Assembly: GCA_048885925.1 (NCBI GenBank)
Contig: JBHLLG010000029.1
Span: 1 to 33,031, forward strand
From: Candidatus Hermodarchaeota archaeon
Lineage (GTDB): Archaea > Asgardarchaeota > Lokiarchaeia > Sigyniarchaeales > SOKP01
Reading direction: 5' to 3'
Length of the DNA stretch: 33,031 nt
Below the pieces are notes generated by a model that made no database searches, was not told where the DNA came from, and saw nothing but the letters and a program-made list of their open reading frames with translations. Positions 15,783 through 31,979 of this stretch are shown piece after piece (within the stretch, counting starts at the first letter, position 1; each line of letters begins with the position of its first letter). The translations under genes were made by a program, and so were the position numbers.

Positions 15783-16154
15783 ATGAATAAGGATAATAGA
15801 TATTCAATAGATTTGGAAATAAAATATAAACCCTTAGAGATTATTGATATTCCAAAAATAATAAAGAAATGTACCAAAAAATGGCAGAATGTTTCCCTGT
15901 GTAGTATTAATGATTCTGTTGTGAGATTAGCAGTTATTGAAGGAGAATTCCATTGGCATAAACATGAAAAAGAAGATGAATTCTTTTTTGTTATCGAAGG
16001 ATTACTTATAATTGATTTGGAAGAAAAAATAATCGAGTTAAAAACTAAACAGGGTTTTACTGTTCCAAAAGGAATAATGCATAGAACAAGAGCCCCATCT
16101 CGCACATCAGTTTTAGTGATAGAAAAAAGCACTATTAAACCAACGGGAGATTGA
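15783..16154 (+). CDS. Cupin domain protein
   Basis: GEFHWHKHEKEDEFFFVIEG and FTVPKGIMHR cupin motifs. Confidence 0.9.
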   Translation: MNKDNRYSIDLEIKYKPLEIIDIPKIIKKCTKKWQNVSLCSINDSVVRLAVIEGEFHWHKHEKEDEFFFVIEGLLIIDLEEKIIELKTKQGFTVPKGIMHRTRAPSRTSVLVIEKSTIKPTGD

Positions 16155-16161
16155 AATCACT

Positions 16162-18280: not shown

Positions 18281-18337
18281 TTATATACACCTTATAATTA
18301 TTAAATAATTAAAGAAAAAAAGAAAGTAAGTAATACT

Positions 18338-18745
18338 TTATTCATTTAGCTTTTCTAAAAGTTGCTTCATTCCATCATAATTCATAGCACCAATAACTTT
18401 ATTTAAAACTTCACCATTTTTTATAAACAAAGTTGTAGGAATGCCAGTTATTCCATATTTCATTGCTGGAACGCTGTTTTCATCAACATTGACCTTGGCA
18501 AAAATAAAATCCTCTTGAAATTCTTCTTGAAGCCTCTTAAAAATTGGTGCAAAAAACATACAAGGACCACACCAAACTGCCCAAAAATCAATGATTATTA
18601 CCTTATCTGGAAAATTCTTTAATAGATTATTAAAATCCTCAGCAGTGTTTAGTTCAACTATGCTTTTCGGCATCGGTTGTTGGTTTATTAAAGCTTCAGC
18701 TTTTTTCATTCTCAGCACTTCTAACTCTTTATCTGTTTCGTTCAT
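18338..18745 (-). CDS. trxA: Thioredoxin with archaeal N-terminal helical extension
   Basis: DFWAVWCGPC active site and GIPTTLF. ATG at 18745 (MNETDKELEVLRMKK) preferred over the GTG at 18775. Confidence 0.92.
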   Translation of the reverse strand: MNETDKELEVLRMKKAEALINQQPMPKSIVELNTAEDFNNLLKNFPDKVIIIDFWAVWCGPCMFFAPIFKRLQEEFQEDFIFAKVNVDENSVPAMKYGITGIPTTLFIKNGEVLNKVIGAMNYDGMKQLLEKLNE

Positions 18746-18924
18746 TTGTTTTTCACTTGTGAAATTTTTTTTCACAACTTTTTAATTATAATATATTTAA
18801 TACAGTATTTAAAAGTGATTGTAGTGCGAGAAAGTTCACTACTTTCCTAATTATTTTCAGTTATATTTTCAAGTAATAGAACAACAGATTGAAATGGGGT
18901 ATTAAAATAAATAAGAGAAAAAAA

Positions 18925-19005
18925 TCCTAGAAGTAATAATTAACTTCTAGGACAATGATATGGAAAAGAAAAGATGATAAAATAAATTTATCACTGTGAT
19001 GGTGA
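18925..19005. repeat. Copy 1 of a ~80-bp hairpin-containing repeat
   Basis: TCCTAGAAGT-aataatta-ACTTCTAGGA, then AATGATATGGAAAAGAAAAGATGATAAA, then TATCACTGTGATGGT. Confidence 0.9.
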
Positions 19006-19315
19006 AAAAAACACTAATGAATTGTTTCTCAGATTATTATTTAGCTTTTCTATCTAAATTATGGATAAATTAAAAAACGAAAATCTTCTATTTAAATATT
19101 TTTTGAAATTGTTTTAGGAAATTCATTTTTTCCACATATCAAAATATTATGTAGTTCTTGATCATTCCAAATTTTCAATATATTGAAAAAAATAAGTCTT
19201 ATTTTGACATTCCAACATATCAAGATTTTGTGATTTTTTAGGAGAACTAAGCTGTCTCAAATGCAATTTTCATAAATCCCTTTATAATAGGAAAAAAAAT
19301 GTCTAATTAATCAAG

Positions 19316-19395
19316 TATCCTAGAAGTATAAACTTCTAGGATAATGATATGGAAAAGAAAAGATGATAAATTAGTCTATGACCATGATAGTTCAA
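19316..19395. repeat. Copy 2 of the ~80-bp hairpin-containing repeat
   Basis: TATCCTAGAAGT-ataa-ACTTCTAGGATA, the identical 28-mer at 19343-19370, then TATGACCATGATAGT. Confidence 0.9.
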
Positions 19396-19416
19396 TATCT
19401 CGGAATTTATAATTCA

Positions 19417-19566
19417 CTATTCTTTAATATCAAATTTTGATTGCTCCTCTAATTCCACTTGCCAAAATTCGTCCTTTTCACATTTTTTACAAATTGCTAC
19501 TGAATTAGTAAAATCTAATTTCATTACATTCCCACATTTTATACATTTTATCTTTATCTTGCTTAT
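19417..19566 (-). CDS. Unannotated 49-aa zinc-ribbon microprotein, copy 1 (putative ATA start)
   Basis: Manual translation: (I/M)SKIKIKCIKCGNVMKLDFTNSVAICKKCEKDEFWQVELEEQSKFDIKE*. 33/49 identical to 26018..26167. Confidence 0.75.
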   Translation of the reverse strand: MSKIKIKCIKCGNVMKLDFTNSVAICKKCEKDEFWQVELEEQSKFDIKE

Positions 19567-19569
19567 CTC

Positions 19570-20547
19570 TTACACACCCTTCTCGATTTTTTTTTCGTCA
19601 ACAAATAAGAATAAAAAATTTTCCTCCAAACCTCTATTACGCTTTAAGCTTAAATCTCGTCTTCTGAAGGAGAGCATTCGCTGAAATTCTAAATCTCTGT
19701 TATATTTATGAGCATTTTCGATTATCTCTTCTAAGATTTTTTCTTTAATTCTATTCTCATTAATATCAATTCCATCAAATATTTGAATTTCAGAACACTT
19801 TTCAATAAAATTTTTTAATAATTCATCCGATAAAACATCAGACCTTTCTCTTATAGCATTATTAATTATGTCCTCCAATTTTTGATAATATTCTCTCTTA
19901 CAAAATTGACAAAGCATGCATTTTGAACTACGATTTTTAAATATATTGAGTATAATTAATCCAGTAATTAATTTGAAATTTTGAATTAAAATATCAATTT
20001 CTTGGTCTTTTTTCTTAGAATCTTTAATATATTGTTGAATATGTTTTTCTGCATCTAGATATAACTTAGAAAAAAATCTAGCTCTTGCAAAATATACGGG
20101 TACTATACAAAAAATTCGAAGAAACCAAAAAGAACTAATGCCTAGAGGAGGATTCTCAGAAAAAATATAATAAACTATTCGCCCCTCCCGCTCCTTATAT
20201 AAAGTAGATTCTTTTTCCAAAATATTTAAATATGTTGATATTGTAGAGCGAGCAACATCTTTAAAATATCGTTCATATTCTTCCTCAACATCTGCAGTAG
20301 TTACTTTTTCCTGTCCATCTAGATAAAACTTTAATATTATGCCTAATATACGATTTTCATGAAGAAGTCCTGTCTTTACCTGTTGTTCTTCCGCCTCATC
20401 CTCTCTAAATTGATATAAATAAGATAGTTCAGGAGCAAAATCTCGAATAACTTCATCCATTAACCTAAGTTCTGGATCTGATATCTCAAATTTTTCTATT
20501 TTAGGTCTTACGATCATTTCCTTTTCCATATCTATTTTTTCTAACAT
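19570..20547 (-). CDS. Winged-helix transcriptional regulator with a CxxCxxC motif
   Basis: VTTADVEEEY...VARSTISTYLNILEKESTLYKEREGRIVYY wHTH; KCMLCQFC motif further downstream. Confidence 0.7.
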   Translation of the reverse strand: MLEKIDMEKEMIVRPKIEKFEISDPELRLMDEVIRDFAPELSYLYQFREDEAEEQQVKTGLLHENRILGIILKFYLDGQEKVTTADVEEEYERYFKDVARSTISTYLNILEKESTLYKEREGRIVYYIFSENPPLGISSFWFLRIFCIVPVYFARARFFSKLYLDAEKHIQQYIKDSKKKDQEIDILIQNFKLITGLIILNIFKNRSSKCMLCQFCKREYYQKLEDIINNAIRERSDVLSDELLKNFIEKCSEIQIFDGIDINENRIKEKILEEIIENAHKYNRDLEFQRMLSFRRRDLSLKRNRGLEENFLFLFVDEKKIEKGV

Positions 20548-20619
20548 CTTAAAAAAACTCAGTCAAATAGTCTCTATTATCAAGTATTATTAGATATTCA
20601 ATTCCATTTATAGATTTAT

Positions 20620-20675
20620 ACTTCGCACTTCGAATAAAGTTCGGACTTCAGTCTGAAGTATAAAATTTAAATAAT
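20620..20675 (+). promoter_or_regulatory. Phased A(C/G)TTC operator array + TATA-like box in divergent promoter 1
   Basis: ACTTC at 20620, ACTTC at 20627, AGTTC at 20638, ACTTC at 20645. Inverted repeat ACTTCAG-T-CTGAAGT at 20645-20659. TTTAAATA near 20666. Confidence 0.6.
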
Positions 20676-20718
20676 AAAAACGAATTATATATACAAAAGC
20701 AAAAAAATAGGTTTTATT

Positions 20719-23715
20719 ATGAGTAGATCAAAGGGAATAATGTATCCTCCAGGAGATATATTGAATCCCACTTTAGGGAAAACTGATTATAGTTATATTA
20801 TCCTTTGGATGCTTAATAATAACGAATATTGTGAGTGGTCTGACTTTGTTGTAGAGATTAGTGAATCAACGTTATCAAGTCATTTGCGAAAATTAATGAA
20901 TAAAAATTTCGTCAAAAAGCCAGAAAGAAATAAATATAAAATTACTAAGCAAGGAACTGAACGATTCAATGAATTAACCTATAGTATGAGTACAGGAAAA
21001 AGACGTTTGGTCTATCCTCCAAGAACTATTCTTAATAAGCGGAATTACGATCATTGGATACTGTGGATGTTATATAATAATTATTCTTGTAAATGGATTG
21101 ATTTAAAACAAAAACCACTTTCTATTAATCAATCTGCCTTATCTAATAATATAAATTCATTAATAGAAGAAGGTTATATCGTTAGAGAAAATAAAGAATA
21201 TATAATAACTCCATTAGGTACATCACATTATTTTACAATTTTAAAACAATATGATCTAGACCGTCAATCGATTCTAGAACAACAAAGTAAAAGAGTCGAG
21301 GAAATTACAGAAAAAACATCTGAATTTTTCAATAGGTATAATATTAAGAATCAAGAGTTAAAATTTCGATATATTAATTATGTTCTAACATTAGATTACT
21401 CAAAAGTAGAATCCACGTTAAGAAATGAGGATGATTTCAATAAAATTTTATTATTCCTTGCAATTAATCATCCAGATCAATATTCAAATTATACATCTCC
21501 TGAAAAATTTTCCCAAAATTATAGTATTGATATTACGACACTTAATTATTATATTAAAGAGATTGTGGATAACCAATTTTTCAAGATAAAATTCTTTAAG
21601 ATTGAAGAGGAAACTGGACAAGATTATTATTTTCAAAAAAATGAACCACTTGAGAAAATCCTTAATGCCATTGTTGAAAAATATATTACAAAATTCACCT
21701 ATCTAAATAAATTTCAAGATAATCCTTCTCTAAACATTGAATTCTTACTAGATAAGATTTTGAAAGATATATGTGGTTATTTGTTTGATGTAAAATTTGA
21801 AATACCATTAAAGAACTTTTTACCTGAATATATAAAATATTTAGCTTATAATATAGGAACTGAGAAATCCTTAATTGATAGCGAGGCAAAATTAGAAGGT
21901 TTTGTATGGCAAAACATTTTTGAAGAGTTTTTGACATTTCAACCGTCTTCAACACCTACAGAGACTGGTAAAATAGATGAATCTGCTTATACCCTTGATA
22001 AATCAATTTTCAGCATTTTGGATATTTTTTATACTTCAAAGTTAAAGTTTTTACAAACAGATGAAATACAAGAGATTTATGGGCTTAAAAGTGTTGAAAT
22101 TTTTGATGATATTTATGAACTATTGTATAATTATAAAGTGCAAAAAGCAAGGGAACTATATGAGAAGAATAAGGAAGAACTCAATGAATTACATAAACTA
22201 ATTTTAAAAGATCTCCTTAATACTATAGAATATAATTTTAAAGAATCAATTAATATTACCAACAAAATTATTAAAAAGTATCCAGAAGATGTTATAGGAT
22301 ATTTATTCCAATCAATTACATACTTTCTAATGGATGATTATGAAAATTCATTAAATATTGTCGAAAAGGGATTAAAAGAAGCGCCAAATATTCTTTTATT
22401 TTGTCAAAAAGCTCAATTATTTATAAAAATGCGTAGAGCAGAGGAAATCATCAGTGATCTTGATGAAAGTTTATCTAAGCATCCTAATAATATTCCTTTA
22501 TTACGGACAAAGTATATATTTTTTATTAATCACTGGATTGCACATAAAAAAAGTTCTGAAAACATTTCTAATCCCATTAATTCTGCAATTAAATTGAAAC
22601 CAACAGATCAAGAGCTATTATTACTTAAAAGTCTATCTTATGTCTGGATGAATAAATACCAAGAGGCAAAAAAATTCATAATAAATAAAATTAATTTAAG
22701 TATCTTAAAAAAAAATCCTAGAATTGATACAAGTGCATTATTTATTTTGGCATTTTCTTATCTTGCACGAGGGAAATATAAAAAAGTTTTGAAAATAATA
22801 AATCAACTCTATGAATTCTATCCAGATCATCCAATATCAATCATTACAAAATCCATATTTCAAGGATATAACTTGATTTATAAATTTGGATTTGATCAAT
22901 CTAATATTAATACATTTTTAGAATTGATGGAAGCTATACTCTCTCTTGAACCACTAAAATATAATAAAGTTCAGTATCTCATTTTAAAAGCAATTATATT
23001 ACATGGAATACAACAATACGATATTGCTATTGACTCACTTAATACTGCAATTGAATTAATACCGGATCTAAATTATCTTTATCTTAGAAAAATTTTGTTT
23101 TTAACTGCGATAAATCGAGATTCTGAGGCTTTAAAATTGATTGAAGAATTAAATCTAAAAATTCCTCAATTAAAATTCAATCTTGGTCAATTAAAAACAT
23201 GTATTCTTGTTAAACAGAAAAATTATGAGGATGCTTTAAAGACCACCAATGATTTACTCAAGATATTCATTGATAAGATGGAAATTATAAATAATAAAGC
23301 TATAATTTTAGCATATTTAAATAAAAAAGAAGAAGCTTTAGAGGCTGCGGAACATTTAATCCAGCTTAATCCAAATTGGAGTAATTCCTATGATAGTTAT
23401 GGCATCATTCATATGTTTTTTGAACAATATGAACAAGCAATAGAGAAATTTGAAGAGGCTATAAGAATTGATCCAGCAAGTGATTTTGTTTTCCAGACAT
23501 GGTTAAACTTAGGTCTTTGTTATAAAAAACTTAAAAAGTATGATAAAGCACTGGAATCTTTTGAGAAAGGGAAATTACTTACAGAAAGAATGATCCCAAA
23601 TTTAAGAGAATTCTATTTTAATGAAGCTTTTAATGAAGCAGAAAAAAATCTTTCAGAAATAAAAATAATAATAGAAAAATTGAAAAAAGGGGATCATCAA
23701 CACTCGGAAAAATGA
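20719..23715 (+). CDS. Tandem winged-helix + TPR repeat protein (paralog A)
   Basis: Two internal repeats YPP..I...ILWML.NN...W.D....S.LS.....L...(F/Y)V/I...Y.IT..G (wHTH). C-terminal TPRs such as YDSYGIIHMFFEQYEQAIEKFEEAIRIDP and WLNLGLCYKKLKKYDKALESFEKG. Confidence 0.85.
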   Translation: MSRSKGIMYPPGDILNPTLGKTDYSYIILWMLNNNEYCEWSDFVVEISESTLSSHLRKLMNKNFVKKPERNKYKITKQGTERFNELTYSMSTGKRRLVYPPRTILNKRNYDHWILWMLYNNYSCKWIDLKQKPLSINQSALSNNINSLIEEGYIVRENKEYIITPLGTSHYFTILKQYDLDRQSILEQQSKRVEEITEKTSEFFNRYNIKNQELKFRYINYVLTLDYSKVESTLRNEDDFNKILLFLAINHPDQYSNYTSPEKFSQNYSIDITTLNYYIKEIVDNQFFKIKFFKIEEETGQDYYFQKNEPLEKILNAIVEKYITKFTYLNKFQDNPSLNIEFLLDKILKDICGYLFDVKFEIPLKNFLPEYIKYLAYNIGTEKSLIDSEAKLEGFVWQNIFEEFLTFQPSSTPTETGKIDESAYTLDKSIFSILDIFYTSKLKFLQTDEIQEIYGLKSVEIFDDIYELLYNYKVQKARELYEKNKEELNELHKLILKDLLNTIEYNFKESINITNKIIKKYPEDVIGYLFQSITYFLMDDYENSLNIVEKGLKEAPNILLFCQKAQLFIKMRRAEEIISDLDESLSKHPNNIPLLRTKYIFFINHWIAHKKSSENISNPINSAIKLKPTDQELLLLKSLSYVWMNKYQEAKKFIINKINLSILKKNPRIDTSALFILAFSYLARGKYKKVLKIINQLYEFYPDHPISIITKSIFQGYNLIYKFGFDQSNINTFLELMEAILSLEPLKYNKVQYLILKAIILHGIQQYDIAIDSLNTAIELIPDLNYLYLRKILFLTAINRDSEALKLIEELNLKIPQLKFNLGQLKTCILVKQKNYEDALKTTNDLLKIFIDKMEIINNKAIILAYLNKKEEALEAAEHLIQLNPNWSNSYDSYGIIHMFFEQYEQAIEKFEEAIRIDPASDFVFQTWLNLGLCYKKLKKYDKALESFEKGKLLTERMIPNLREFYFNEAFNEAEKNLSEIKIIIEKLKKGDHQHSEK

Positions 23716-23720
23716 TCTAA

Positions 23721-24383
23721 ATGGATTACCAATTCATAGAAACAGTTACTCTTGATTTTGACTTGGGGAAATTATTATCAGTTGATTTCAGCTTAAATTT
23801 TGGTAGTTCATGTACAGTTAGTCTAACTGAAAAAGTGATGGATGAAATAATAGATTATATTCAAAATGAAGGAGCTCCAGATTTTATATGGTTTAAGAGA
23901 ATAAAAACCTCATTTAAGCATGCAAAATGTAAAGAAATTGTTAAACAAATTAAAATGGTTTATCCAAATCAAAAAATTGGTATCTACTTAAATTGTGCAC
24001 TTTTTCAAGATGTAAAAATTAGAAAAGATTTTTATAAGTATGATTTAGTTGCGATAAATTTGAATACAGTTGATCCTTTAAATTTCTCAAAGATTAATCA
24101 ATGCGCTGATTCTGTAGATTCAGAAAAAATTTTAGCAGGAATTAAAGAATTCAGAACAAAATTCAATGGTAATTTTGGGATTTACTCCTTATTCTTACAC
24201 GGGATAAATGATAGTAGTGAAAATCTGGAATCTTTAAAGATGTTTTTATTAAAAACAATACCAGATCATTTTTCTATTAGTACTTATACTTTAAATGGAT
24301 TTGAACCTATTTCAAAAGAATTTAAGAATAAAGTTAAAGAGACTTTCAGATACCTCCCATTTAAGGTATATTATAGGTTTTAA
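23721..24383 (+). CDS. Degenerate radical-SAM-fold protein lacking CxxxCxxC
   Basis: LG..LSVD, DLVAINLNTVDPLNFSKIN, ILAGIKEF...F.G, LFLHGINDS and PD....ST resemble an uncharacterised archaeal/bacterial radical SAM family, but no Cys triad is present. Confidence 0.55.
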   Translation: MDYQFIETVTLDFDLGKLLSVDFSLNFGSSCTVSLTEKVMDEIIDYIQNEGAPDFIWFKRIKTSFKHAKCKEIVKQIKMVYPNQKIGIYLNCALFQDVKIRKDFYKYDLVAINLNTVDPLNFSKINQCADSVDSEKILAGIKEFRTKFNGNFGIYSLFLHGINDSSENLESLKMFLLKTIPDHFSISTYTLNGFEPISKEFKNKVKETFRYLPFKVYYRF

Positions 24384-24444
24384 AATAACATGAGTAATAA
24401 GAATTAATTATTATATTTACTTTATAATTAAAAAAAAAATAAAT

Positions 24445-25767
24445 TTATTCTATAGAATCAGCAATTTGTACAACTTCAGGGATTTCTATAATTTCCTCTT
24501 CTTTCTTCTTTTCAGCTTCCGCTTCTGCCATCTTTTCGCGATCAATTATTTCAAGGTGTCTAATTTTTGTGAAAAACCATACAAAAAGCGGAAATATTAT
24601 GCCTAATATAGCGCATGTAAGGAATAAATTAATTATCCCGAATATTTCTGCTATTGGACCAGCAATAAGTGCTCCAATCGGAGCAATTGCCATAGAAATC
24701 ATATGATCAATCGACATTATACGTCCAACTTTATCCTTCGAAACAACTGTTTGCAGGATTGCTAAATATGTTGAGACTGTGATTGGAAACAATACTGCTC
24801 CTGGAAAAAGTGAAATCATCATAAGAATAAAATTCCCTTTAGGAGCTAAAATCGCAGGTATTTGTCCAAGAAAGAATAACGATGCTCCAATTACATTTAT
24901 CTTGATCTTATGTTTCCATGTTTTCTTAATTGACATTACAATAGCACCAGTTATATTTCCTAGTTGCATTGCCATCATTAATAGTGCCAAGTTGAAAGCG
25001 GAGCCGTCATGTGTATATCTAATGAAATATGGAGTTAAAACAGCCCATGGTCTATGAATAAAGTTCCATACCATCGCAAATAAAATCATCGCAAGCAAAC
25101 CAGGGATCAATTTAATTGTTAATAATCCTGTTTTGAAGTCTTTAAACATCGATTTTTTGACAGCTTCTTCAGTTGTCTGGTAGACTTTGGGAATTTTAAT
25201 AATCAATAATGGGATAAGTGCAATCAGGAAAGTTATTCCGTCGATAAGGAAAATTTGGGTTATTGGAAAAATTGCTAAAAGTGTCGCTGCAATCATTGGA
25301 CCTAATGCATAAATTAATCCATTAAACAAAAAATTTATCCCATTAATCCTACTTAGGTGTTCTTTTGGAACCATAGTTGGTATAAGTGATAACACTGTGG
25401 GATATTGAAATGCAAATAACCCTGCCCTAAATGTATTCATTCCTAAAACAAACCAAATACTTTGAAAATCCACTAAAAAAAACACAAATAATAAAGTTGT
25501 TGACATCGCTTGCAATGTATCTGAAATTACTATTATCACTTTTTTATTCCATCTATCTGCAATAACTCCTGAGAATGGTGTTACAATAATCTGTGGAAGA
25601 AACATCAAAAAGGTTGAAATTGAAAGATAAACTGCACTACCAGTCTCTATAGTAATCCACCATGTTATAACAAAATTAACTATCAACGATCCTAACATAG
25701 AAAACTGTTGCCCAAATAAAAAATACAGATAATGTCTAAAGCTTGTTTTCGTCACATTTGTTTCCAT
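24445..25767 (-). CDS. MFS transporter (DHA3/MefA-like efflux)
   Basis: GQQFSMLGS, PFSGVIADRWNKK (motif A) and MVPKEHLSRING; 12 TM pattern. Confidence 0.92.
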   Translation of the reverse strand: METNVTKTSFRHYLYFLFGQQFSMLGSLIVNFVITWWITIETGSAVYLSISTFLMFLPQIIVTPFSGVIADRWNKKVIIVISDTLQAMSTTLLFVFFLVDFQSIWFVLGMNTFRAGLFAFQYPTVLSLIPTMVPKEHLSRINGINFLFNGLIYALGPMIAATLLAIFPITQIFLIDGITFLIALIPLLIIKIPKVYQTTEEAVKKSMFKDFKTGLLTIKLIPGLLAMILFAMVWNFIHRPWAVLTPYFIRYTHDGSAFNLALLMMAMQLGNITGAIVMSIKKTWKHKIKINVIGASLFFLGQIPAILAPKGNFILMMISLFPGAVLFPITVSTYLAILQTVVSKDKVGRIMSIDHMISMAIAPIGALIAGPIAEIFGIINLFLTCAILGIIFPLFVWFFTKIRHLEIIDREKMAEAEAEKKKEEEIIEIPEVVQIADSIE

Positions 25768-25842
25768 TTTAACTTACTTCTTGAATATAAATTTTTCATT
25801 ATTCTATACTAATCACTATTTTTATTTATAGATTAATTAGAT

Positions 25843-25885
25843 GAACTTAAAATAAACTCTGAACTTAATTCTGAACTATCACTTA
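25843..25885 (-). promoter_or_regulatory. Phased AGTTC array upstream of the MFS gene
   Basis: The minus strand reads AGTTCAGAATTA-AGTTCAG-AGTTTATTTTA-AGTTCAT (spacing 12/7/11). Confidence 0.5.
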
Positions 25886-26017
25886 AATTTATTCTACAAT
25901 TTTTACACTTAATTGAAATTCAAAAATATGAAATAAAATAACTTCACTATAAATCAAACTAAGGATGAAATTCAAGTTTGGATAATCATCTTTTATTATA
26001 TAAGAAATCATAATTAA

Positions 26018-26167
26018 TTATTCAATATTTTTAAGTTTTGGGTGATCCTCAGGTTCAATGTGCCAAAATTCGTGCTTTTCACATTTCTTACAAATTGCTA
26101 CTGAATTAGAGAAATCTAACTTCATTACATTACCGCATTTTATACATTGTATCTTTAATTTACCCAT
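26018..26167 (-). CDS. Unannotated 49-aa zinc-ribbon microprotein, copy 2
   Basis: MGKLKIQCIKCGNVMKLDFSNSVAICKKCEKHEFWHIEPEDHPKLKNIE*. ATG start with GAGG upstream; paralog at 19417..19566. Confidence 0.85.
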   Translation of the reverse strand: MGKLKIQCIKCGNVMKLDFSNSVAICKKCEKHEFWHIEPEDHPKLKNIE

Positions 26168-26209
26168 TTTCGCATATTCCTCTAATTTTAATTAAAAAAT
26201 AAAAAAAAA

Positions 26210-26293
26210 TTACCTAAAGAAACTGCTATAATTTAGATTATAACTTGCCGTATCATTCCTAATTATAATGATTCTTTTTCTGTTTTTATTCAT
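26210..26293 (-). CDS. Candidate 27-aa peptide
   Basis: MNKNRKRIIIIRNDTASYNLNYSSFFR*. GGAAGGTTG SD-like site before the ATG; co-oriented between two small genes. Confidence 0.4.
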   Translation of the reverse strand: MNKNRKRIIIIRNDTASYNLNYSSFFR

Positions 26294-26334
26294 CTTTTCA
26301 ACCTTCCTTTTTCATTTTTATATGTTTTTATATA

Positions 26335-26583
26335 TTAATAAATTGCATAAACCCTATATACTGATTTCTGCTTAACACGATTTATGGGAATTAAATCTCG
26401 ATGATAAATTCCGTTATATTTAGAGATTAATCTTGAGATGTTATTACTAAGTTTCTTTTCTTCTAATGGTTCCTCTAATCTTTGAATATCTCCCCTTTCA
26501 ACATCGCTTAAACATTTTTTGATAACTTCTTCTACATCAACACAATTTTTTCTTACATCCTTATTTATTACTGCTTGAGCCAT
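26335..26583 (-). CDS. Hypothetical 82-aa protein
   Basis: ATG with GAGGT SD; first gene of the small-gene set divergent from the wHTH-TPR paralog B. Confidence 0.7.
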   Translation of the reverse strand: MAQAVINKDVRKNCVDVEEVIKKCLSDVERGDIQRLEEPLEEKKLSNNISRLISKYNGIYHRDLIPINRVKQKSVYRVYAIY

Positions 26584-26670
26584 TATTTAAACCTCTTTTT
26601 TTATTGTTTTGATATTTTTTTTTCTTAAGTTTTTATAATCAAAAAAAACATTTATAGTTTCTATTACAAA

Positions 26671-26735
26671 ACTTCGCAAGTAGTTTGTAGTCCAATAGAA
26701 GTTCATAGTACAGAGTGAACCAGAACATTTATAAA
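26671..26735 (+). promoter_or_regulatory. Phased operator array + TATA-like box in divergent promoter 2
   Basis: ACTTC at 26671, AGTTT at 26682, AGTCC at 26689, AGTTC at 26700, AGTAC at 26707 (11/7/11/7). TTTATAAA near 26728. Confidence 0.55.
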
Positions 26736-26779
26736 TTAGAAAACTTAATCATATATTGTTAAAACTTTGGTGTTTACTA

Positions 26780-29302
26780 ATGAGTGGAACACATGAAATA
26801 AACTACCCCTCTGAAGAAATTCAAACCCAGTTATTAGGTGAAAAACAAAATACTGAACATCTTATTTTATGGATGCTTAAAAATAATGAAGCAGTAGGAT
26901 GGTCGAATTTTATGGAGGAACCAATTGGTATTCCTCAATCTACGTTATCGAATTATATGGCAACTCTCATAACTAATGGATTTGTAAAGAAACCGAAAAG
27001 GGGAATTTATGAAATAACTGTAGAGGGAGAAAAAAGATTTAATGAATTATCTCGATCACAGGAAACTAAAAGAAAATTAAGTTATCCGCCTGATACTATT
27101 ATTGGAGGGCGTAATTATGATGATATAATTCTTTGGATGGCATATAATAATAATTATCTAAAATGGGCAGATTTCATTGATAGTGATAGTCCAGTATTCA
27201 TTAATCAATCATCATTATCAAAAAATATTAAATTATTAGTAAGTAAAGGTTCAATAAAAAAAGACGACCAGACGAAAGAATATCAAATTACCCAAAAAGG
27301 TAAAACTGAATACTCAAAGATGTTAAAACAATACAATTTAGACAGACAATCTATTTTGGATGAAGAAGCCAAGAGAATCGAGGAGATTACAAAAAAAACA
27401 ATTGCATTTTTTGAAAAATATAAAATAAAAGACGGAGATGTTAAATTTCGATTTTTAAATAACATTTTAAAGTTACCTTTCGCAAATTTGAAAGGTTCTT
27501 TAGATTCAGAGGAAGAATTTAACAAGATATTGTTATTTTTATCAATGAATCATCCAAATCAATTTCCTGATTACATTCCACCTGAGCAATTTTCCAAAAA
27601 ATATTTTATTAATTTATTAGATCTTAAATTTAATATTCGTCAAATTATTGAAAAAGAGGCCTATACGACAAAATTTTTTAGGTTAAAGGCTGGGGAGAAC
27701 ATAGTTTATTATTTTCAAGCAAATGAGAAAATAGAGAAAGTTCTTAGTGCGATAACTGAGGATCATATAACAAAATTTACCTATTTAAATAAATTATATG
27801 TCAATACTCCAAAAGGAGCTCCAAAATTAAGTTTAAATTCTACTGTTAATGCAATTTTAGAGGAGATATGTGATAATTTATTTCATGAGGGATTAAAAGA
27901 ACCATTAAGAGAGTTTTTACCTGAATATATAAAGAATTTAGCTTATAAAATAGAATCTGAAAGAAAGTTATTAGATACATTGGATAAGTTGGAGGGAGTT
28001 GCCTGGAGGGATATTCCTGAAGTATTTCAATCCTATAGTACACAGCAAGATTTAATAGAACAAGCTCAATTCAAATATTACATCGATTATTCAATACTAA
28101 AAGTATTAAGTCTATTTTCTTCTCCTAAAATTGAAAAGAAATTCGAAGAAGCAAAATATTTAATGAAACATAAGGATTTCGATAATGTATTAGAAAAATT
28201 AAATTCTGATATCGAATCAGAACCAAACAACTTAAACTTATTATTCTTAAAAGTAATTTTTTTAATTTTATCAAACAGACATCAAGAAGCAATTCGATTT
28301 CTGAAAGAAGAGCTAAAAAGCTATTCGAATAAAAACGATGAGAAATTTGTAATTCCTTATAATTTTATATTATTATACATCAATTTAGTATTAGCTGAAT
28401 TTAATAAAGCTTTAAAAATCAGTAAAAAATTATCTGATGAGTATCCAGATCATCCGTTATCCTATATTTCAAAAGCTTTAATATTTGGATATAAAATTAT
28501 CTATCAACTTGATTTAGGAAATATAAGAATAGATCAAGTATTGGTTGATATTGATCAAGCCATTTCTTTAGATTCAAATAAAGGTAATAAAGCGAAATAT
28601 TATCACTTTAAGAGTTTTGTTTTACATCAAATAAAGAAATATGATGAAGCGCTTGAAGCGATTGAAACTGCTATTGAGTTAGATCCTAAAGATCTTCATT
28701 TACATTTTATGAAATACAATATTTTATATGATTATGAAAAAATAGATAAAGCTTTAGAACTGGTAGATCAAGCTATAAAAGAGTTTCCTAAATATGAAAT
28801 TAAATTATCCATACATAAAGCATTTCTTTATAAAAAGAATAACAACTTTAAAGAAGGATTAAAAATAATAAATGATTTACTTGAAAAATACCCTCATGAG
28901 GTAGATCTCTTAAATAATAAGTTATACTGGCATTTATATCTTCAAGAAAAAAATGAAGCAATTGAAACAGGAAAACTACTCACTACTTTAGAGCCTGATG
29001 ATGGAAATTTTCATGATTCATATGCTGAAGCTTTAATGGAATTTGGTGAGTACGATGAAGCGATTAAAGAGATACAAAAAGCCTTAGAACTTGAACCATA
29101 TGGTTGGTTTACTTATAATTCATATCTTACGGTAGCAAAATGTTATAAGGAGATCGGGGAATATAATTTCGTACGAGAAGCTTTAGATAAAGGAGAAGGG
29201 GCGATAAACACATGTTTTTGTGGAATAGAAAAAAGAAGAGAATGGAAAGACAAAAAATTAAAACTTTTAAACGAATTAGAAAATTTAGAGAGAACAATTT
29301 AA
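26780..29302 (+). CDS. Tandem winged-helix + TPR repeat protein (paralog B)
   Basis: Collinear with 20719..23715 (ILWML.NN, YPP..I...NYD..ILWM.YNN, LKQY.LDRQSIL, FNKILLFL..NHP.Q, FLPEYIK.LAY). ATG at 26780 with GGTG SD preferred over the TTG at 26756. Confidence 0.85.
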   Translation: MSGTHEINYPSEEIQTQLLGEKQNTEHLILWMLKNNEAVGWSNFMEEPIGIPQSTLSNYMATLITNGFVKKPKRGIYEITVEGEKRFNELSRSQETKRKLSYPPDTIIGGRNYDDIILWMAYNNNYLKWADFIDSDSPVFINQSSLSKNIKLLVSKGSIKKDDQTKEYQITQKGKTEYSKMLKQYNLDRQSILDEEAKRIEEITKKTIAFFEKYKIKDGDVKFRFLNNILKLPFANLKGSLDSEEEFNKILLFLSMNHPNQFPDYIPPEQFSKKYFINLLDLKFNIRQIIEKEAYTTKFFRLKAGENIVYYFQANEKIEKVLSAITEDHITKFTYLNKLYVNTPKGAPKLSLNSTVNAILEEICDNLFHEGLKEPLREFLPEYIKNLAYKIESERKLLDTLDKLEGVAWRDIPEVFQSYSTQQDLIEQAQFKYYIDYSILKVLSLFSSPKIEKKFEEAKYLMKHKDFDNVLEKLNSDIESEPNNLNLLFLKVIFLILSNRHQEAIRFLKEELKSYSNKNDEKFVIPYNFILLYINLVLAEFNKALKISKKLSDEYPDHPLSYISKALIFGYKIIYQLDLGNIRIDQVLVDIDQAISLDSNKGNKAKYYHFKSFVLHQIKKYDEALEAIETAIELDPKDLHLHFMKYNILYDYEKIDKALELVDQAIKEFPKYEIKLSIHKAFLYKKNNNFKEGLKIINDLLEKYPHEVDLLNNKLYWHLYLQEKNEAIETGKLLTTLEPDDGNFHDSYAEALMEFGEYDEAIKEIQKALELEPYGWFTYNSYLTVAKCYKEIGEYNFVREALDKGEGAINTCFCGIEKRREWKDKKLKLLNELENLERTI

Positions 29303-29380
29303 TTAGATTCTTTCTAGTTAATATTTAATTTAACTTTTTTTAAATTTGAGTGTTTAAATTATTGAACTGTTTTAATAATA

Positions 29381-29410
29381 AATTCATAGTTCAATAAAAC
29401 TTCATAGATT
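29381..29410 (+). promoter_or_regulatory. Phased operator array upstream of the ATC-hydrolase-like gene
   Basis: AATTCAT-AGTTCAATAAA-ACTTCAT-AGATT (7/11/7), closely matching 26682-26711. Confidence 0.55.
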
Positions 29411-29484
29411 TAATCTATTTATAGAAATAATAATTTTAAAATATTAAAATTAGAGATTTTTCTAAAAAGATAATGTGATATAAG

Positions 29485-30303
29485 ATGAAAAATGATGACA
29501 AAATAATTATGACCTATAATCGAAACGCAAAGATAACTTATAAAATTCATGATATTATCACTTTATGTTTAACAGCACTAGAATCTTTTTTAAAAAATGT
29601 TTATAATGAAATATCAAATTCAATTTCCGCTATATTTGAATTTTTGAATGAATTATATCGAAAGAATGAAAATTATAATGTTTCAATTGAGTCTGATTAT
29701 GAAATCCTAAATCAACATCCTAAATTATTGAAAGCTTGTATCAATTATATTTTAACTCTGTTAGATTTTAAAATGTATAGTCAAAATGCTCTTAATGACG
29801 AAATTGAAATTGAAGTTATAAACCTTATTCATACTTTCACTCATTTTGAATATTCTTTTGTTAGTTCTTTATTTAAATTAATGACTCAAGAAGAAGCTAT
29901 TAAATATTATAAAAATTTTGTGGATGAATTAACTCAATCAAGAAGAGATCCGAAGAAAGATCTGAATAATTTACATGATCTTGCCAATAATTTTAAAGAT
30001 TTTTCAGAAAGATGGCATGATTTAGAGGCTATTCTTGAAATTATTAATGAAGAAAAGTTGATTTTTAAAGTAAAAAAATGTAGATGGGCTGAAAATTTGA
30101 AAGATTTTGGATCTGAAATTGGTTATGCAATGATGTGTCATCAAGATTTTGAAAGAGCTAAAAACTTTAACCCGAACTTTCTCCTAACTAGAAACCATAC
30201 ATTAATGCAAGGTAATGATTATTGCGATTTCTGTTATCATGACACGCGAAAAAATAAAGATTTATCTCATCCTTCAGAAAAAGAATTTAAGGACTTAGGT
30301 TAA
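29485..30303 (+). CDS. L-2-amino-thiazoline-4-carboxylate hydrolase-like (V4R-related) domain protein
   Basis: C-terminal KKCRWAE...GYAMMCHQD...FNPNFLLTRNHTLMQGNDYCDFCY signature. Confidence 0.8.
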   Translation: MKNDDKIIMTYNRNAKITYKIHDIITLCLTALESFLKNVYNEISNSISAIFEFLNELYRKNENYNVSIESDYEILNQHPKLLKACINYILTLLDFKMYSQNALNDEIEIEVINLIHTFTHFEYSFVSSLFKLMTQEEAIKYYKNFVDELTQSRRDPKKDLNNLHDLANNFKDFSERWHDLEAILEIINEEKLIFKVKKCRWAENLKDFGSEIGYAMMCHQDFERAKNFNPNFLLTRNHTLMQGNDYCDFCYHDTRKNKDLSHPSEKEFKDLG

Positions 30304-30324
30304 TCTTTTTGATATATAATATGG

Positions 30325-30906
30325 ATGGAATATATTATGAAAGAAATTTTATGTTTTTTATATGATGGATTTGTTGATTTTGAGATGGCTCTTACTTGTT
30401 CGCCAATAAATGGAAATGAAAATTATAAATTAACCTATATTGCGTATGACAAAAAACCGATTAGAAGTTCTAGTGGATTAACAATTTTACCAGATAAAAA
30501 AGTTTCTGAGATCACTGACTTAAATCCAATTGAAGGTCTAATAATTCCTGGAGGAATTATAAGAATTCTTAACCCAGAACTTAAACATCTAATTAAAAAA
30601 TTAAATGATGAAAAAAAATTACTTGCAGCCATTTGTGCTGGACCAGAATTTCTAGCAAAAAGTGGTGTATTAAAGGGGAAAAAATACACTACCTCAGAAG
30701 AACCACAAAATTACAAAGAAAAAAATGAAGAGGACCCGTTTCCAAGAGATACGTATATTGATACAAGGATAATTCAAGATGGTAATATCATTACAGCTAA
30801 AGGTCATGCATTCATAGATTTTTCTCTTGAAATTTGGGATTGGTTTGATCTTTTTACTTCTGAAGAAGAAAAAGAAGAAGATAAAAAATTACTTACTCCG
30901 ATTTAA
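30325..30906 (+). CDS. DJ-1/PfpI family protein
   Basis: GFVDFE, LIIPGG, AAICAGP (nucleophilic Cys) and GNIITAKG. Confidence 0.92.
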   Translation: MEYIMKEILCFLYDGFVDFEMALTCSPINGNENYKLTYIAYDKKPIRSSSGLTILPDKKVSEITDLNPIEGLIIPGGIIRILNPELKHLIKKLNDEKKLLAAICAGPEFLAKSGVLKGKKYTTSEEPQNYKEKNEEDPFPRDTYIDTRIIQDGNIITAKGHAFIDFSLEIWDWFDLFTSEEEKEEDKKLLTPI

Positions 30907-30945: not shown

Positions 30946-31713
30946 TTATTCTTTTTTATAGCCTACTTTTATCGTCATTGATATCGTTTCATCAAAGACT
31001 TGTCCTTCTACTTCGCATTTAAACGGCATCTCTTCAGAGGTAAATAATTCCGTGAAATAGCCAAACCAATAATTACCATAGCGCTTATTTTGACGATGTC
31101 TAAATAATATATGAAACAAATCCTCTGTTTCCTTTTTGACATCAATTGTATGAAAGTAATTCGCAACGACCCATACTTTTTGAATTGTTTTTATAATATC
31201 TTCAACAGAAAGATTTTTAAGGGGTTTAGCCTCATTATACCATAGAATTAAATCAATAGCTACATTTTTACGCCATGGCTTTTGCAAACTATCTTCTGGG
31301 GATTCTGCTGCATGGATTAATTGATTAAAGGTCGTTTTTCCAATCAACATCATTTTCATCTCGTCTCTTGCACGTACCCAGAGATCTCTATCCAGATTTT
31401 TCTGATCTCCATAATACTTAATTGCTCGTTCTATAAAAGAAATTTCAGTCTCATCTTCTTTCATATATTTTTTAATGAACCCTTGAACTTCAGGTGAGAT
31501 TGAATTAAAATCATCATACAATTTTATAGCATTTCTTACTAAATCTGATATGGTTGTTCCATGTTCTTTATATTTATCTATTAAACTACGTGTTTCATCG
31601 GAAACTTTGATATATACCGGTTTGTCTTTTAGTTCATATTCTTTTAACTCATCTTCCTCGGTCTCATTATTCTTATCATTAGAATTTTCATTGGCTTTTG
31701 CCATTAAAATCAT
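30946..31713 (-). CDS. Ribbon-helix-helix (CopG-like) regulator with a C-terminal alpha/beta putative ligand-binding domain
   Basis: KPVYIKVSDETRSLIDKY...TISDLVRNAIKLY is RHH-like, followed by a partial second copy (EISFIERAIKYY). Confidence 0.55.
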   Translation of the reverse strand: MILMAKANENSNDKNNETEEDELKEYELKDKPVYIKVSDETRSLIDKYKEHGTTISDLVRNAIKLYDDFNSISPEVQGFIKKYMKEDETEISFIERAIKYYGDQKNLDRDLWVRARDEMKMMLIGKTTFNQLIHAAESPEDSLQKPWRKNVAIDLILWYNEAKPLKNLSVEDIIKTIQKVWVVANYFHTIDVKKETEDLFHILFRHRQNKRYGNYWFGYFTELFTSEEMPFKCEVEGQVFDETISMTIKVGYKKE

Positions 31714-31979
31714 CCACTATATTCTTATTTTTTATAATCTATCAAGAATATATATCTTTATATAATTATATATAACCAACAAAATATTTATCTCTTCTGT
31801 TTTTAAAAAATAAATATATATATTCATATATATCTCTCTATAGTTTTTATTTAGGTTTTAAAGCTATATTCTTCGGTTTTGTAATTGATCATAACATTTA
31901 AATATATTGTTATATACATGTATATAGAAAATAAAAAAAAATATAAAATAATATAAAAAAATATAAGAGTTTTAAAAAA

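Follow-up and report, generated by a model that had tools for sequence, protein, structure and literature searches.

The phased A(G/C)TTC boxes found at four neighbouring promoters of this locus raise the question of whether they form a common regulatory element and, if so, in what unit they are read and by which protein. The boxes lie within the window, i.e. the whole 33,031-nucleotide stretch of DNA that was analysed, which belongs to a genome of 3.9 Mb with a G+C content of 29%. TBP genes are present in this genome, which mark the organism as an archaeon. An earlier note on this DNA had described the boxes as an operator with alternating 7- and 11-bp spacing that would suit a protein with two tandem winged-helix (wHTH) domains.

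Two genes of the window encode proteins that join such a tandem wHTH module to TPR repeats. TPR1 (20719..23715, plus strand; 998 aa) consists of the tandem wHTH (residues ~1–190), a helical middle and C-terminal TPR repeats, and its Pfam matches include PF13601 HTH_34 (38.4 bits, cut-off 27) and TPR_2 (87.2 bits, above the cut-off). TPR2 (26780..29302, plus strand) has ∼840 aa counted from ATG 26780, its longest ORF beginning at TTG 26756, and matched PF14947 HTH_45 (34.1 bits, cut-off 25.5) and TPR_19 (60.6 bits, above the cut-off). The N-terminal AF2 model (mean pLDDT 82) presented two wHTH folds in one chain, the first comprising H24-34, H40-43, H49-61, E65-69 and E72-75 and the second H110-121, H126-130, H138-151, E154-157 and E160-163. 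The linker between them (∼12 residues) was of low confidence, and the model therefore leaves the distance between the domains unfixed. The two halves share 36% identity (E 3e-14); judged by sequence, the tandem wHTH module of the wHTH-TPR proteins is an internal duplication. Pfam, the AF2 model and the half-to-half identity thus agree with the earlier description of both proteins as starting with two tandem wHTH domains.

The remaining genes of the locus are smaller. The gene for wHTH325 (19570..20547, minus strand; 325 aa), a single winged-helix protein with a weak Penicillinase_R match in Pfam, is divergent from TPR1 in the window and is placed after the MFS gene in relatives. Immediately 3′ of TPR1 lies orf220 (23721..24383, plus strand), for which the Pfam search found no family; it directly follows the TPR1-type gene in the window and in 10 of the 11 relatives' loci that hold such a gene. 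An MFS transporter gene (24445..25767, minus strand; Pfam MFS_1/MFS_3) is followed by a string of small genes opposite TPR2 (26018..26583, minus strand), made up of orf82 (26335-26583), a 27-aa micro-ORF (26210-26293) and a 49-aa zinc-ribbon ORF (26018-26167). In relatives orf82 is kept beside TPR2, and in one relative a look-alike micro-ORF and zinc-ribbon ORFs face TPR1. Downstream of TPR2, Pfam identified an ATC-hydrolase-like gene (29485-30303, plus strand) and a DJ-1/PfpI gene (30325-30906, plus strand).

The phased A(G/C)TTC arrays at the four promoters are real, and the letters quoted for them earlier (at 20620, 26682 and 29381 and on the minus strand) are all correct. The array between wHTH325 and TPR1 (20620..20659, plus strand) contains ACTTC 20620, ACTTC 20627, AGTTC 20638 and ACTTC 20645, in steps of 7/11/7. 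At offsets 0/7/18/25, its sequence from 20620, ACTTCgcACTTCgaataaAGTTCggACTTC, agrees with A[GC]TTC without a mismatch; no other perfect four-box match occurs in the 3.9-Mb genome. Between orf82 and TPR2 (26671..26721, plus strand), the boxes are ACTTC 26671, AGTTT 26682, AGTCC 26689, AGTTC 26700 and AGTAC 26707 (steps 11/7/11/7); the sequence from 26682, AGTTTgtAGTCCaatagaAGTTCatAGTAC, shows three mismatches to the four-box frame, and the ACTTC at 26671 is an extra box 11 bp upstream. The MFS array (25843..25877, minus strand) is formed by AGTTC 25877-25873, AGTTC 25865-25861, AGTTT 25858-25854 and AGTTC 25847-25843. Its steps are 12/7/11, and it falls outside the four-box frame because the first step holds one extra spacer base; in orthologous MFS promoters the steps are mostly 11/7/11. 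At the ATC/DJ-1 promoter (29381..29410, plus strand), a strong pair 11 bp apart (AGTTC 29388 and ACTTC 29399) has a weak box on either side (AATTC 29381 and AGATT 29406), the sequence from 29381 being AATTCatAGTTCaataaaACTTCatAGATT, with three mismatches to the frame. Two features had escaped the earlier note. An inverted box closes both TPR-gene arrays (GAAGT 20655-20659 at TPR1 and GAACC 26717-26721 at TPR2), and both of these arrays span the gap between two divergent TATA-like boxes.

The TATA-like boxes were predicted from sequence. For TPR1, the predicted box is TATAAAAT (20659..20666, plus strand), 53 nt before ATG 20719, and orthologues present an A/T-rich TATA-like stretch at the equivalent place. 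A predicted box facing wHTH325, TCTATAAA (20607..20614, minus strand), corresponds to the conserved AT.TATAGATT beside box 1 in the consensus; its equivalent in relatives precedes wHTH325 or a micro-gene. On the minus strand, CTATAAAT is predicted both for MFS (25824..25831), 11 nt beyond the last array box, and facing orf82 (26650..26657), where it is conserved as at.tatagTtt in 14 TPR2 promoters. The putative TPR2 box, TTTATAAAT (26728..26736, plus strand), coincides with a conserved tttaaa column block, and that of ATC/DJ-1, CTATTTAT (29415..29422, plus strand), lies 11 nt beyond the last strong box. Each of the four arrays ends shortly before a predicted TATA-like box, in line with the earlier placement of the boxes upstream of TATA-like sequence. 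In the TPR1 and TPR2 promoters, the inverted box abuts the presumed BRE. Single-pair promoters such as that of ATC, and the MFS promoter, have their last box 11 nt upstream of the predicted TATA-like box. The repressor-type arrangement, overlapping or downstream of the predicted TATA-like box, was found in neither kind of promoter. A box ending 11 nt upstream of TATA is more typical of archaeal activator sites, and the label "operator" is doubtful.

The four-box pattern (≤3 mismatches) matched three times in the window against 0.02 expected, and none of 100 shuffles reached three, a figure which, like the other shuffle and Poisson figures given here, is overstated by the mutual relatedness of the compared promoters and relatives. 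The claim that both TPR genes, MFS and ATC/DJ-1 share a non-random, phased promoter element is supported. Genome-wide, the pattern gave seven matches, four of them at promoters of the wHTH-TPR family. As control spacings reached up to six, this count alone is unremarkable, and it is the clustering that is striking.

Conservation was then compared between box and spacer columns of orthologous or paralogous promoters, whose shared pattern is partly inheritance. Boxes were more conserved than spacers for TPR1 (0.97 vs 0.75, n=12), TPR2 (0.80 vs 0.67, n=14) and MFS (0.82 vs 0.72, n=11); across congeneric genomes the spacers drift and the boxes stay. All 12 TPR1 promoters carry the exact 11-bp pair as well as the four-box frame. 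Among the 14 TPR2 promoters, ten carry the exact pair, ten the frame (≤3 mismatches) and all a pair with at most one mismatch, and the MFS promoters have the pair in 9/11 (exact) or 10/11 (≤1 mismatch). No exact 11-bp pair was detected in the neighbouring control promoters of orf255 (0/14) and Trx (0/7). For ATC/DJ-1, the exact pair was present in only 3/19 relatives' promoters (ATC 2/11, DJ-1 1/8): L034 retains it for ATC and L032 for DJ-1, L045 has a single box left, and the other relatives are without it. Few relatives thus keep the ATC/DJ-1 site of the proposed local regulon.

Exact A[GC]TTC pairs in the intergenic DNA of the whole genome were most enriched at a distance of 11 bp (14 against a background mean of 2.8, Poisson P 1.8e-6), and more weakly at 18 (10), 29 (8), 7 (7) and 25 bp (7). 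Since the exact 11-bp pair is also the one conserved in orthologous promoters, the conserved unit is the 11-bp pair and not the pair of half-sites 7 bp apart that had been proposed. Within the window, the 11-bp pair with ≤1 mismatch occurred 13 times against 6.1 expected, and 3 of 100 shuffles reached 13, which is weak when taken alone. When box sequence was disregarded, four phased pentamers in the promoters of 111 paralogues (25 genomes) were most self-similar at steps (7,11), (11,7) and (11,8), with values of 26.0–26.1 compared with ∼23.4 at other steps.

The genome was further scanned for exact pairs followed 8–14 nt on by a TATA-like box. Six such sites were found with spacer N6, compared with 0–3 for spacers N2–N11, and all six have an ORF start 60–185 nt downstream. 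The genes that follow are the ATC-like gene, an aldehyde:ferredoxin oxidoreductase (AOR) gene, two MFS genes, a 103-aa ORF and an M32 peptidase gene. The same scan with one mismatch was mostly noise (34 matches for N6 vs 14–34 for other spacers). For the MFS gene on contig 32, 20 out of 26 distinct promoters of congeners have the exact pair; among the closest homologues of this gene in six genomes outside the genus the pair was found in 0/9, and those six genomes gave no match to the regulator N-terminus. The AOR site is kept in 3/17 relatives' promoters. The regulon would extend beyond what was first claimed, with the addition of wHTH325, orf82 with its micro-genes and two MFS genes on other contigs.

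The wHTH-TPR family was present in 23/23 congeners and in 2/16 other genomes of the order. The earlier note had suggested looking for arrays upstream of wHTH-TPR paralogues, and related boxes were indeed found upstream of many paralogue clades. The clade whose wHTH1 recognition helix reads ...STLSIY... has AsTCy pairs in 13/16 promoters and AsTTy pairs in 0/16, while the ...STLSKY... clade has AsTTy pairs in 15/19, as single 11-bp pairs without a 7-bp partner, and AsTCy pairs in 0/19. Strict AsTTC pairs occur in 11/11 promoters of the SGN, SGH and SSH groups of the TPR1 clade, in 6/7 of the SYY group of the TPR2 clade and in 6/13 of its SNY group, which holds the window's TPR2. Box type thus appears to track the recognition helix of the first wHTH, although this co-variation amounts to no more than one or two events at clade level. 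The AsTCy clade has changed both boxes of the pair, yet the wHTH2 helix NQSSLSKNLN is nearly invariant across clades; this clade does not fit the simple model in which wHTH1 reads box A and wHTH2 reads box B. Given that many paralogue clades carry boxes and that box type follows the wHTH1 helix, the tandem-wHTH/TPR proteins are the candidate binders of the arrays, and on balance probably the right ones.

Alternatively, the boxes may be bound by another factor, either wHTH325 as a head-to-tail oligomer or an unlinked regulator, and the wHTH-TPR genes would then be targets rather than binders. We consider this unlikely. The wHTH325 promoter bears a TPR1-type element in the window and in most relatives examined, so that wHTH325 is an equally local candidate for that element. 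In the window, as on contig 11, in L035 and in L050, one element is shared by wHTH325 and either TPR1 or one of its paralogues; L031, L032, L033 and L043 have a separate element for wHTH325, of which L034 shows only part. Beyond that element, however, no wHTH325 gene of this genome adjoins the arrays of TPR2, MFS or ATC or the sites of the contig 32 and contig 35 MFS genes, and the wHTH325 paralogue on contig 75 has a promoter without boxes. Identical boxes would suggest identical heads, for which a homo-oligomer of a single-wHTH protein is simpler than two diverged domains, and the constancy of the wHTH2 helix where boxes change points in the same direction. This is countered by the paralogue numbers, only three wHTH325 against seven wHTH-TPR proteins, most of the latter with their own boxes, and by the fact that box type follows the wHTH-TPR clade.

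The geometry proposed earlier, in which the two wHTH domains of one protein read boxes 7 bp apart and the arrangement is repeated every 18 bp, is improbable. The 7-bp step is conserved within the TPR1, TPR2 and MFS arrays, and the low-confidence linker of the AF2 model places no constraint on the inter-wHTH distance. The minimal sites, however, namely the ATC, DJ-1, contig 32 and 35 MFS, AOR and ...STLSKY... promoters, lack a 7-bp partner. When the family promoters were removed from the genome-wide intergenic count, the distance of 11 bp was still enriched (10 vs 2.6, P 4e-4), whereas that of 7 bp was not (5 vs 2.6, P 0.13). Moreover, a separation of 7 bp would set the heads ∼240 degrees apart around the helix. 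That no dedicated factor is involved, the repeats having arisen by chance or slippage or reflecting the DNA shape of AT-rich promoters, is extremely improbable: the low G+C content, a one-mismatch pair only about twice as frequent as expected in the window and the noisy one-mismatch scan would allow for it, but the clustered four-box matches argue against chance, the G and C of an AT-rich region lie in the boxes, which stay conserved as the spacers change, and other species keep their positions (TPR1 12/12, TPR2 10/14, contig 32 MFS 20/26) where neighbouring promoters are without them.

The arrays are most likely cis-regulatory protein-binding sites within archaeal TATA-box promoters. Their unit is the direct pair A(G/C)TTC-N6-A(G/C)TTC, whose two boxes are separated by 11 bp or about one turn of the helix. 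In the regulators' own and the MFS promoters, units or half-units succeed each other with a 2-bp gap, which accounts for both the alternation of 7 and 11 bp and the 18-bp period. With such a period, consecutive units face different sides of the DNA, which is unusual for a symmetric dimer. The binder would be the tandem winged-helix module at the N-terminus of TPR1, TPR2 and the other paralogues; because this module is an internal duplication, two like heads placed head-to-tail would fit two like direct boxes on one DNA face. The C-terminal TPR part would receive the signal. The presumed outputs are the regulators' own genes with their divergent partners (wHTH325; orf82 with micro-genes) and a small regulon, which may comprise the local MFS gene, ATC-like/DJ-1 and, at the pair-and-TATA sites on other contigs, two MFS genes, the 103-aa gene, the M32 peptidase gene and the less conserved AOR gene. 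Because only 11 nt separate the single-pair site from the TATA-like box, our guess is that a protein bound there activates by helping TBP/TFB.

Several known systems resemble parts of this arrangement. AfsR and other large SARP of Streptomyces consist of an OmpR-type wHTH, BTAD, a STAND ATPase and TPR, and SARP sites have an 11-bp repeat period. They share with the Asgard proteins an N-terminal winged helix and a C-terminal TPR part. PMC11301090 describes two winged-helix heads of AfsR/SARP on the same face of adjacent major grooves, at direct repeats beside the core promoter, a precedent for the reading proposed here. With direct repeats about one helical turn apart near the core promoter, 11 bp in the Asgard pairs, the likeness would lie in the way of working and does not make the Asgard proteins SARP. 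In contrast, SARP are bacterial and have one OmpR-type wHTH per chain, so that the dimer gives the second head, whereas here two heads are fused and the promoter is of the TATA-box type. The Pfam search of TPR1/TPR2 detected no Trans_reg_C or BTAD match (E up to 0.01) and no NB-ARC, AAA or other ATPase family.

The RRNPP regulators of Firmicutes (Rgg, PlcR, PrgX, NprR) also combine a DNA-binding head with a TPR sensor. A further likeness is the divergence of the regulator from tiny genes (26210-26293 and 26018-26167; in relatives too). The HTH of RRNPP proteins is single and XRE-type, and their boxes are palindromic; the Asgard arrays are instead direct repeats, the Pfam matches are to winged-helix families, and no match to the XRE-type families HTH_3, HTH_19 and HTH_31 was found in TPR1/TPR2. 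Two homologous winged-helix domains in one chain are seen in SarS of Staphylococcus aureus (PDB 1p4x, SarA family), which ranked fourth in a Foldseek PDB search with the N-terminal model, a weak match (TM 0.30, 14% identity). SarS differs in being bacterial, in having no TPR part and in its sites. Among archaea, Ptr2 (Methanocaldococcus), EarA (Methanococcus) and TFB-RF1 (Pyrococcus) are activators that bind just upstream of BRE/TATA. The Asgard site likewise lies immediately upstream of the BRE/TATA region, a position that would fit an activating site; the proteins are nonetheless unrelated (Lrp-type and others), with other motifs and without TPR. Lastly, the pho boxes of PhoB/OmpR-type regulators are 11-bp direct repeats on which winged-helix domains bind head-to-tail beside the core promoter. 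The Asgard arrays resemble them in repeat and position, but PhoB/OmpR are bacterial two-component regulators acting as phosphorylation-driven dimers and have no sequence relation to the proteins described here.

A broader and rather speculative reading, which we rate as quite unlikely in its entirety, is that the wHTH-TPR paralogues of this Lokiarchaeial genus are parallel self-wired signalling channels. Each clade would have its own box variant, with A(G/C)TTC, A(G/C)TC(C/T) or an inverted CTTCG...CGAAG layout, a specificity set mainly by the wHTH1 helix and a TPR ligand, possibly the product of the micro-genes that it faces. The channel described here would switch on an efflux and aldehyde/electrophile-detoxification set, namely MFS exporters, DJ-1/PfpI, the ATC-hydrolase-like protein and aldehyde:ferredoxin oxidoreductase, and the family would be an independently arisen archaeal counterpart of RRNPP/SARP.

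To our knowledge and as far as our literature search showed, almost nothing is known of specific gene regulation in Asgard archaea, and this search found no paper on the Lokiarchaeial tandem-wHTH/TPR family. The finding provides a short DNA code, defined by box, spacing and TATA distance, together with a conserved target set and a candidate binder whose DNA-binding module of 195 residues looks soluble. In vitro tests of all three would need no culture of the organism. Together with the adjoining candidate regulators, the arrays offer a gene-control circuit of Loki-type Asgard archaea that is open to direct test. If the co-variation of box and helix holds, the family would provide a natural series in which to study the reading of direct repeats by a fused double winged helix and the ways in which paralogous regulators escape cross-talk.

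The source genome comprises 3.9 Mb in 181 contigs, with a G+C content of 29%, and the window is contig 29. Since the genome encodes TBP at three loci over the Pfam cut-off, promoters of the archaeal BRE/TATA type were expected. The ORF and Pfam annotation agreed with the earlier note's descriptions of the genes around the arrays of A(G/C)TTC boxes. TPR1 (20719–23715) and TPR2 (26780–29302), both on the plus strand, encode proteins with two N-terminal winged-helix (wHTH) domains and C-terminal TPR repeats; together with their paralogues they are termed the wHTH-TPR family here. Directly 3' of TPR1 lies orf220 (23721–24383, plus; 220 aa), which matched no Pfam family and holds this position at 50–56% identity in 10 of the 11 relatives' loci with a TPR1-type gene. 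Further genes are a TrmB-family gene (17816–18280; 154 aa), a thioredoxin (Trx) gene (18338–18775, minus), wHTH325 (19570–20547, minus), whose 325-aa product has a single winged helix, an MFS transporter gene (24445–25767, minus), and the ATC-hydrolase-like and DJ-1/PfpI genes (ATC/DJ-1; 29485–30906, plus). A string of small minus-strand ORFs consists of orf82 and, between it and the MFS gene (26018–26293), a micro-ORF of 27 aa (MNKNRKRIIIIRNDTASY...) and a zinc-ribbon ORF of 49 aa. A second zinc-ribbon copy (74% identity by tblastn) was located 3' of wHTH325 (19432–19533, minus), and a look-alike micro-ORF/zinc-ribbon pair faces TPR1 in the relative G003 (L031:16674–16956).

Every string quoted in the earlier note was found where it had been placed. 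The array at 20620, serving TPR1 and wHTH325, matched A[GC]TTC at offsets 0, 7, 18 and 25 without a mismatch, and was the sole such match genome-wide. The sites at 26682 (within the TPR2/orf82 array, 26671–26721) and 29381 (ATC/DJ-1) showed three mismatches each, giving three matches to this four-box frame in the window against 0.02 expected from shuffles. The MFS array (25877–25843, minus) falls outside the frame because its steps are 12/7/11. Across the whole genome, seven matches were obtained at up to three mismatches, a total that is unremarkable as control spacings gave up to six. Four of the seven nevertheless fall at promoters of this gene family. Three of these are the window sites, and the fourth is on contig 11, where paralogues of wHTH325 and TPR1 flank it. 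Both TPR-gene arrays are flanked by two divergent TATA-like boxes.

The spacing was analysed in two ways, both independent of the four sites. In the first, same-strand A[GC]TTC pairs were counted by distance throughout the roughly delimited intergenic DNA of the genome. A distance of 11 bp occurred 14 times against a background mean of 2.8 (Poisson P 1.8e-6), followed by 18 bp (10), 29 bp (8), 7 bp (7) and 25 bp (7), which are exactly the distances predicted by a 7/11 alternation. When the wHTH-TPR family promoters were masked, 11 bp was still enriched (10 against 2.6, P 4e-4) and 7 bp fell to five pairs (P 0.13); outside these promoters, the extra pairs at 18 and 7 bp were background-like. 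In the second analysis, the steps maximising the likeness of four pentamers were sought, blind to their sequence, in 111 paralogue promoters from 25 genomes, and self-similarity peaked at (7,11), (11,7) and (11,8), with values of 26.0–26.1 against about 23.4. The two analyses therefore demonstrate that the phasing is real and that its unit is the 11-bp pair, i.e., two direct boxes with a 6-nt spacer. The half-site geometry suggested earlier, with boxes 7 bp apart, is probably wrong, given the enrichment of 11 bp, and not of 7 bp, outside the family promoters. The 7-bp step instead reflects the 2-bp gap separating successive pairs within an array.

Conservation was assessed among the relatives. 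The wHTH-TPR family was found in all 23 congeneric genomes (2–10 matches each), whereas elsewhere in the order two of 16 genomes had it. Synteny of the gene set is retained, albeit with rearrangement: the order in the relatives is orf255, DJ-1, ATC and TPR2, then orf82, MFS, wHTH325, Trx and TrmB, then orf220 and TPR1. The TrmB–Trx–wHTH325 block (17816–20547) is inverted or moved in the window relative to the congeneric loci L031, L033, L034 and L043, where it lies 3' of the MFS gene. The inversion in the window leaves wHTH325 and TPR1 facing one another, so that the two share a single array rather than having one each. Where wHTH325 lies 3' of the MFS gene, four of five loci (L031, L032, L033 and L043) give it a TPR1-type element of its own, whose box 1 adjoins its TATA-like box; in L034 only part of the element precedes it.

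The promoter alignments showed conserved box columns and variable spacers. The TPR1 type (n=12; identity 0.97 in boxes against 0.75 in spacers) has the consensus AT.TATAgaTT-N3-acTTCG-N1-ACTTC-N6-AGTTC-N2-AcTTt-N5-GAaGT, followed by a TATA-like stretch. The TPR2 type (n=14; 0.80 against 0.67) presents five direct boxes at steps of 11/7/11/7 and then an inverted GAAC, and the MFS type (n=11; 0.82 against 0.72) four boxes of which the second is weak, with steps of 11/7/11 in most orthologues. The exact 11-bp pair was kept in 12/12 TPR1, 10/14 TPR2 and 9/11 MFS promoters, and in none of the neighbouring control promoters (orf255, 0/14; Trx, 0/7). The arrays are therefore a real, conserved cis-regulatory element, kept upstream of orthologues. 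The ATC/DJ-1 site was far less conserved: the pair precedes ATC in L034 and DJ-1 in L032, a single box remains in L045, and nothing was found at this site in the other relatives, in which ATC lies 3' of TPR2 or of a small ORF without such a promoter. The idea of a local regulon is largely right.

The two control promoters carry elements of their own. An inverted repeat, GTAGTG-N10-CACTAC (18821–18842, minus), immediately precedes a TATA-like box in the Trx promoter. The repeat recurs in the Trx promoters of several relatives and stands beside the 154-aa TrmB-family gene, whose product may bind it. A single-domain TrmB protein is described as a thiol-based oxidative-stress regulator in PMC9426492. 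Upstream of orf255 (30946–31713, minus), at about 31714–31910, (AT)n-rich blocks, for example GATATATATA and TATATATA, alternate and are repeated two or three times. The orf255 promoters of the relatives retain these blocks, which are unrelated to the A(G/C)TTC boxes.

A wider target set was sought as exact pairs followed by a TATA-like box 8–14 nt on. The genome holds six such cases with the 6-nt spacer against 0–3 with other spacers, all with an ORF start 60–185 nt downstream: the ATC-like gene of the window, an aldehyde:ferredoxin oxidoreductase (AOR) gene, two MFS genes (contigs 32 and 35), a 103-aa ORF and an M32 carboxypeptidase gene. Among 26 distinct congeneric promoters of the contig-32 MFS gene, 20 keep the exact pair at 11 nt from the downstream CTATAAAT, and 23 keep it when one mismatch is allowed. 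In six genomes outside the genus, the pair was found in none of the nine promoters of the closest homologues of this gene, and a search with the wHTH-TPR N-terminus gave no match. This joint absence lends weak support to a link between the pair and the wHTH-TPR proteins, as promoters that distant would have diverged anyway. AOR is a weak regulon member: its exact pair recurred in just 3 of 17 congeneric promoters. The pair also stands 185 nt ahead of the start codon, and another TATA-like box, better conserved, intervenes. This box, aataagaaatataaatgag, lies between the pair-plus-TATA site and the AOR start (G000 contig 2, 79957–80141; L115/L124) and is kept in nearly all congeners; the region may contain two promoters, or a small transcript between. 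Extending the regulon by allowing one mismatch proved too noisy (34 matches with the 6-nt spacer, 14–34 with others), and only the window MFS gene, a wHTH325 paralogue (contig 11) and an MFS-like gene (contig 9) were retained on context.

The tandem module of the wHTH-TPR proteins was then modelled. Residues 1–200 form two wHTH folds with a low-confidence linker between them (AF2 model from a 54-sequence alignment, pLDDT 82), and the halves share 36% identity (E 3e-14), which indicates an internal duplication. A fold search with this model returned, at low TM, generic PadR/HxlR/MarR-type winged helices and winged-helix parts of cullin and COP9 proteins, SarS being the sole tandem winged-helix case near the top; the best match of a profile search of solved structures reached only E 0.0045. 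Each domain thus falls among ordinary PadR/HxlR/MarR-like winged helices.

We consider, with moderate confidence, that the wHTH-TPR proteins themselves are the candidate binders of the arrays. Many paralogue clades have boxes at the same place before a TATA-like box, and in the relatives the MFS and ATC/DJ-1 genes consistently have TPR2 beside them; both observations favour this assignment. It is also favoured by the fused duplicated heads, which, joined head-to-tail, would be a natural reader of two like direct boxes one helical turn apart. Furthermore, the box type shifts with the paralogue clade. Where the recognition helix of the first wHTH contains ...STLSIY..., promoters of the clade carry A(G/C)TC(C/T) pairs in 13/16 cases and A(G/C)TT(C/T) pairs in 0/16; for the ...STLSKY... 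clade the counts are 0/19 and 15/19, respectively. Within the TPR1 clade, strict AsTTC pairs (s, G or C) were present in 11/11 promoters of the SGN, SGH and SSH groups; within the TPR2 clade, the SYY group had them in 6/7 and the SNY group, which contains the window's TPR2, in 6/13. The ...ATLSKYM... clade has neither pair type and shows an inverted CTTCG...CGAAG layout instead. These statements rest on pair counts because an unbiased array caller was misled by T-runs in many paralogue promoters. On the other side, this co-variation comes down to one or two changes at the level of clades, in duplicated genes that took their promoters along. The case for the wHTH-TPR proteins is also qualified by the second wHTH helix (NQSSLSKNLN), which hardly varies, yet both boxes of the pair differ in the AsTCy clade.

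A fair rival is that wHTH325 binds the TPR1-type element, which its promoter carries in the window and in most of the relatives looked at. An alternative reading would make ACTTC-N6-AGTTC an inverted repeat built from the 7-mer GAA(G/C)TTC. It suits the ...STLSKY... clade and the TPR1 element in part, and was set aside for direct repeats because the TPR2 boxes are all AGTTC with no preceding GA in the promoter alignment. Variant layouts were observed in other clades, for example at G000 contig 57 (~16100–16200), contig 54 (~2200–2260) and contig 71 (~7230–7290). One consists of AGTCy-N6-AGTCy and then inverted GGACT/GGAyC boxes, as if two 11-bp pairs pointed towards one another. A second layout reads AGTCC-N6-AGTCC-N2-AGTTA-N7-AGTAT, and a third is the inverted CTTCG...CGAAG.

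The position of the sites bears on the sign of regulation. Single-pair promoters have 11 nt between the end of the site and the TATA-like box, so that the site stops a few bases short of the presumed BRE; archaeal sites at such a position are typical of activators rather than repressors. In the TPR1 and TPR2 promoters, an inverted box is directly adjacent to the presumed BRE, and the array reaches the divergent promoter as well. Autoregulation could be of either sign.

Full-text literature searches, assessed from listings and abstracts, found no paper on the tandem-wHTH/TPR family or the A(G/C)TTC motif, and to our knowledge, from these searches and otherwise, no specific regulator has been characterised so far in the host lineage. 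The RRNPP regulators share the HTH-plus-TPR logic and the divergent tiny genes with the wHTH-TPR loci; they have XRE-type HTH domains and palindromic boxes. The closest system in apparent mode of action is that of AfsR and the large SARPs, which, according to PMC11301090, combine a winged helix with TPRs and bind direct repeats adjacent to the core promoter, two heads sitting on the same face in neighbouring major grooves. The Pfam matches of TPR1 and TPR2 include neither the BTAD nor the ATPase domain of AfsR/SARPs. The second head, supplied by dimerisation in AfsR/SARPs, is part of the same chain in the wHTH-TPR proteins. The system would belong to a known kind, that of one-component regulators whose phased direct-repeat site adjoins the core promoter.
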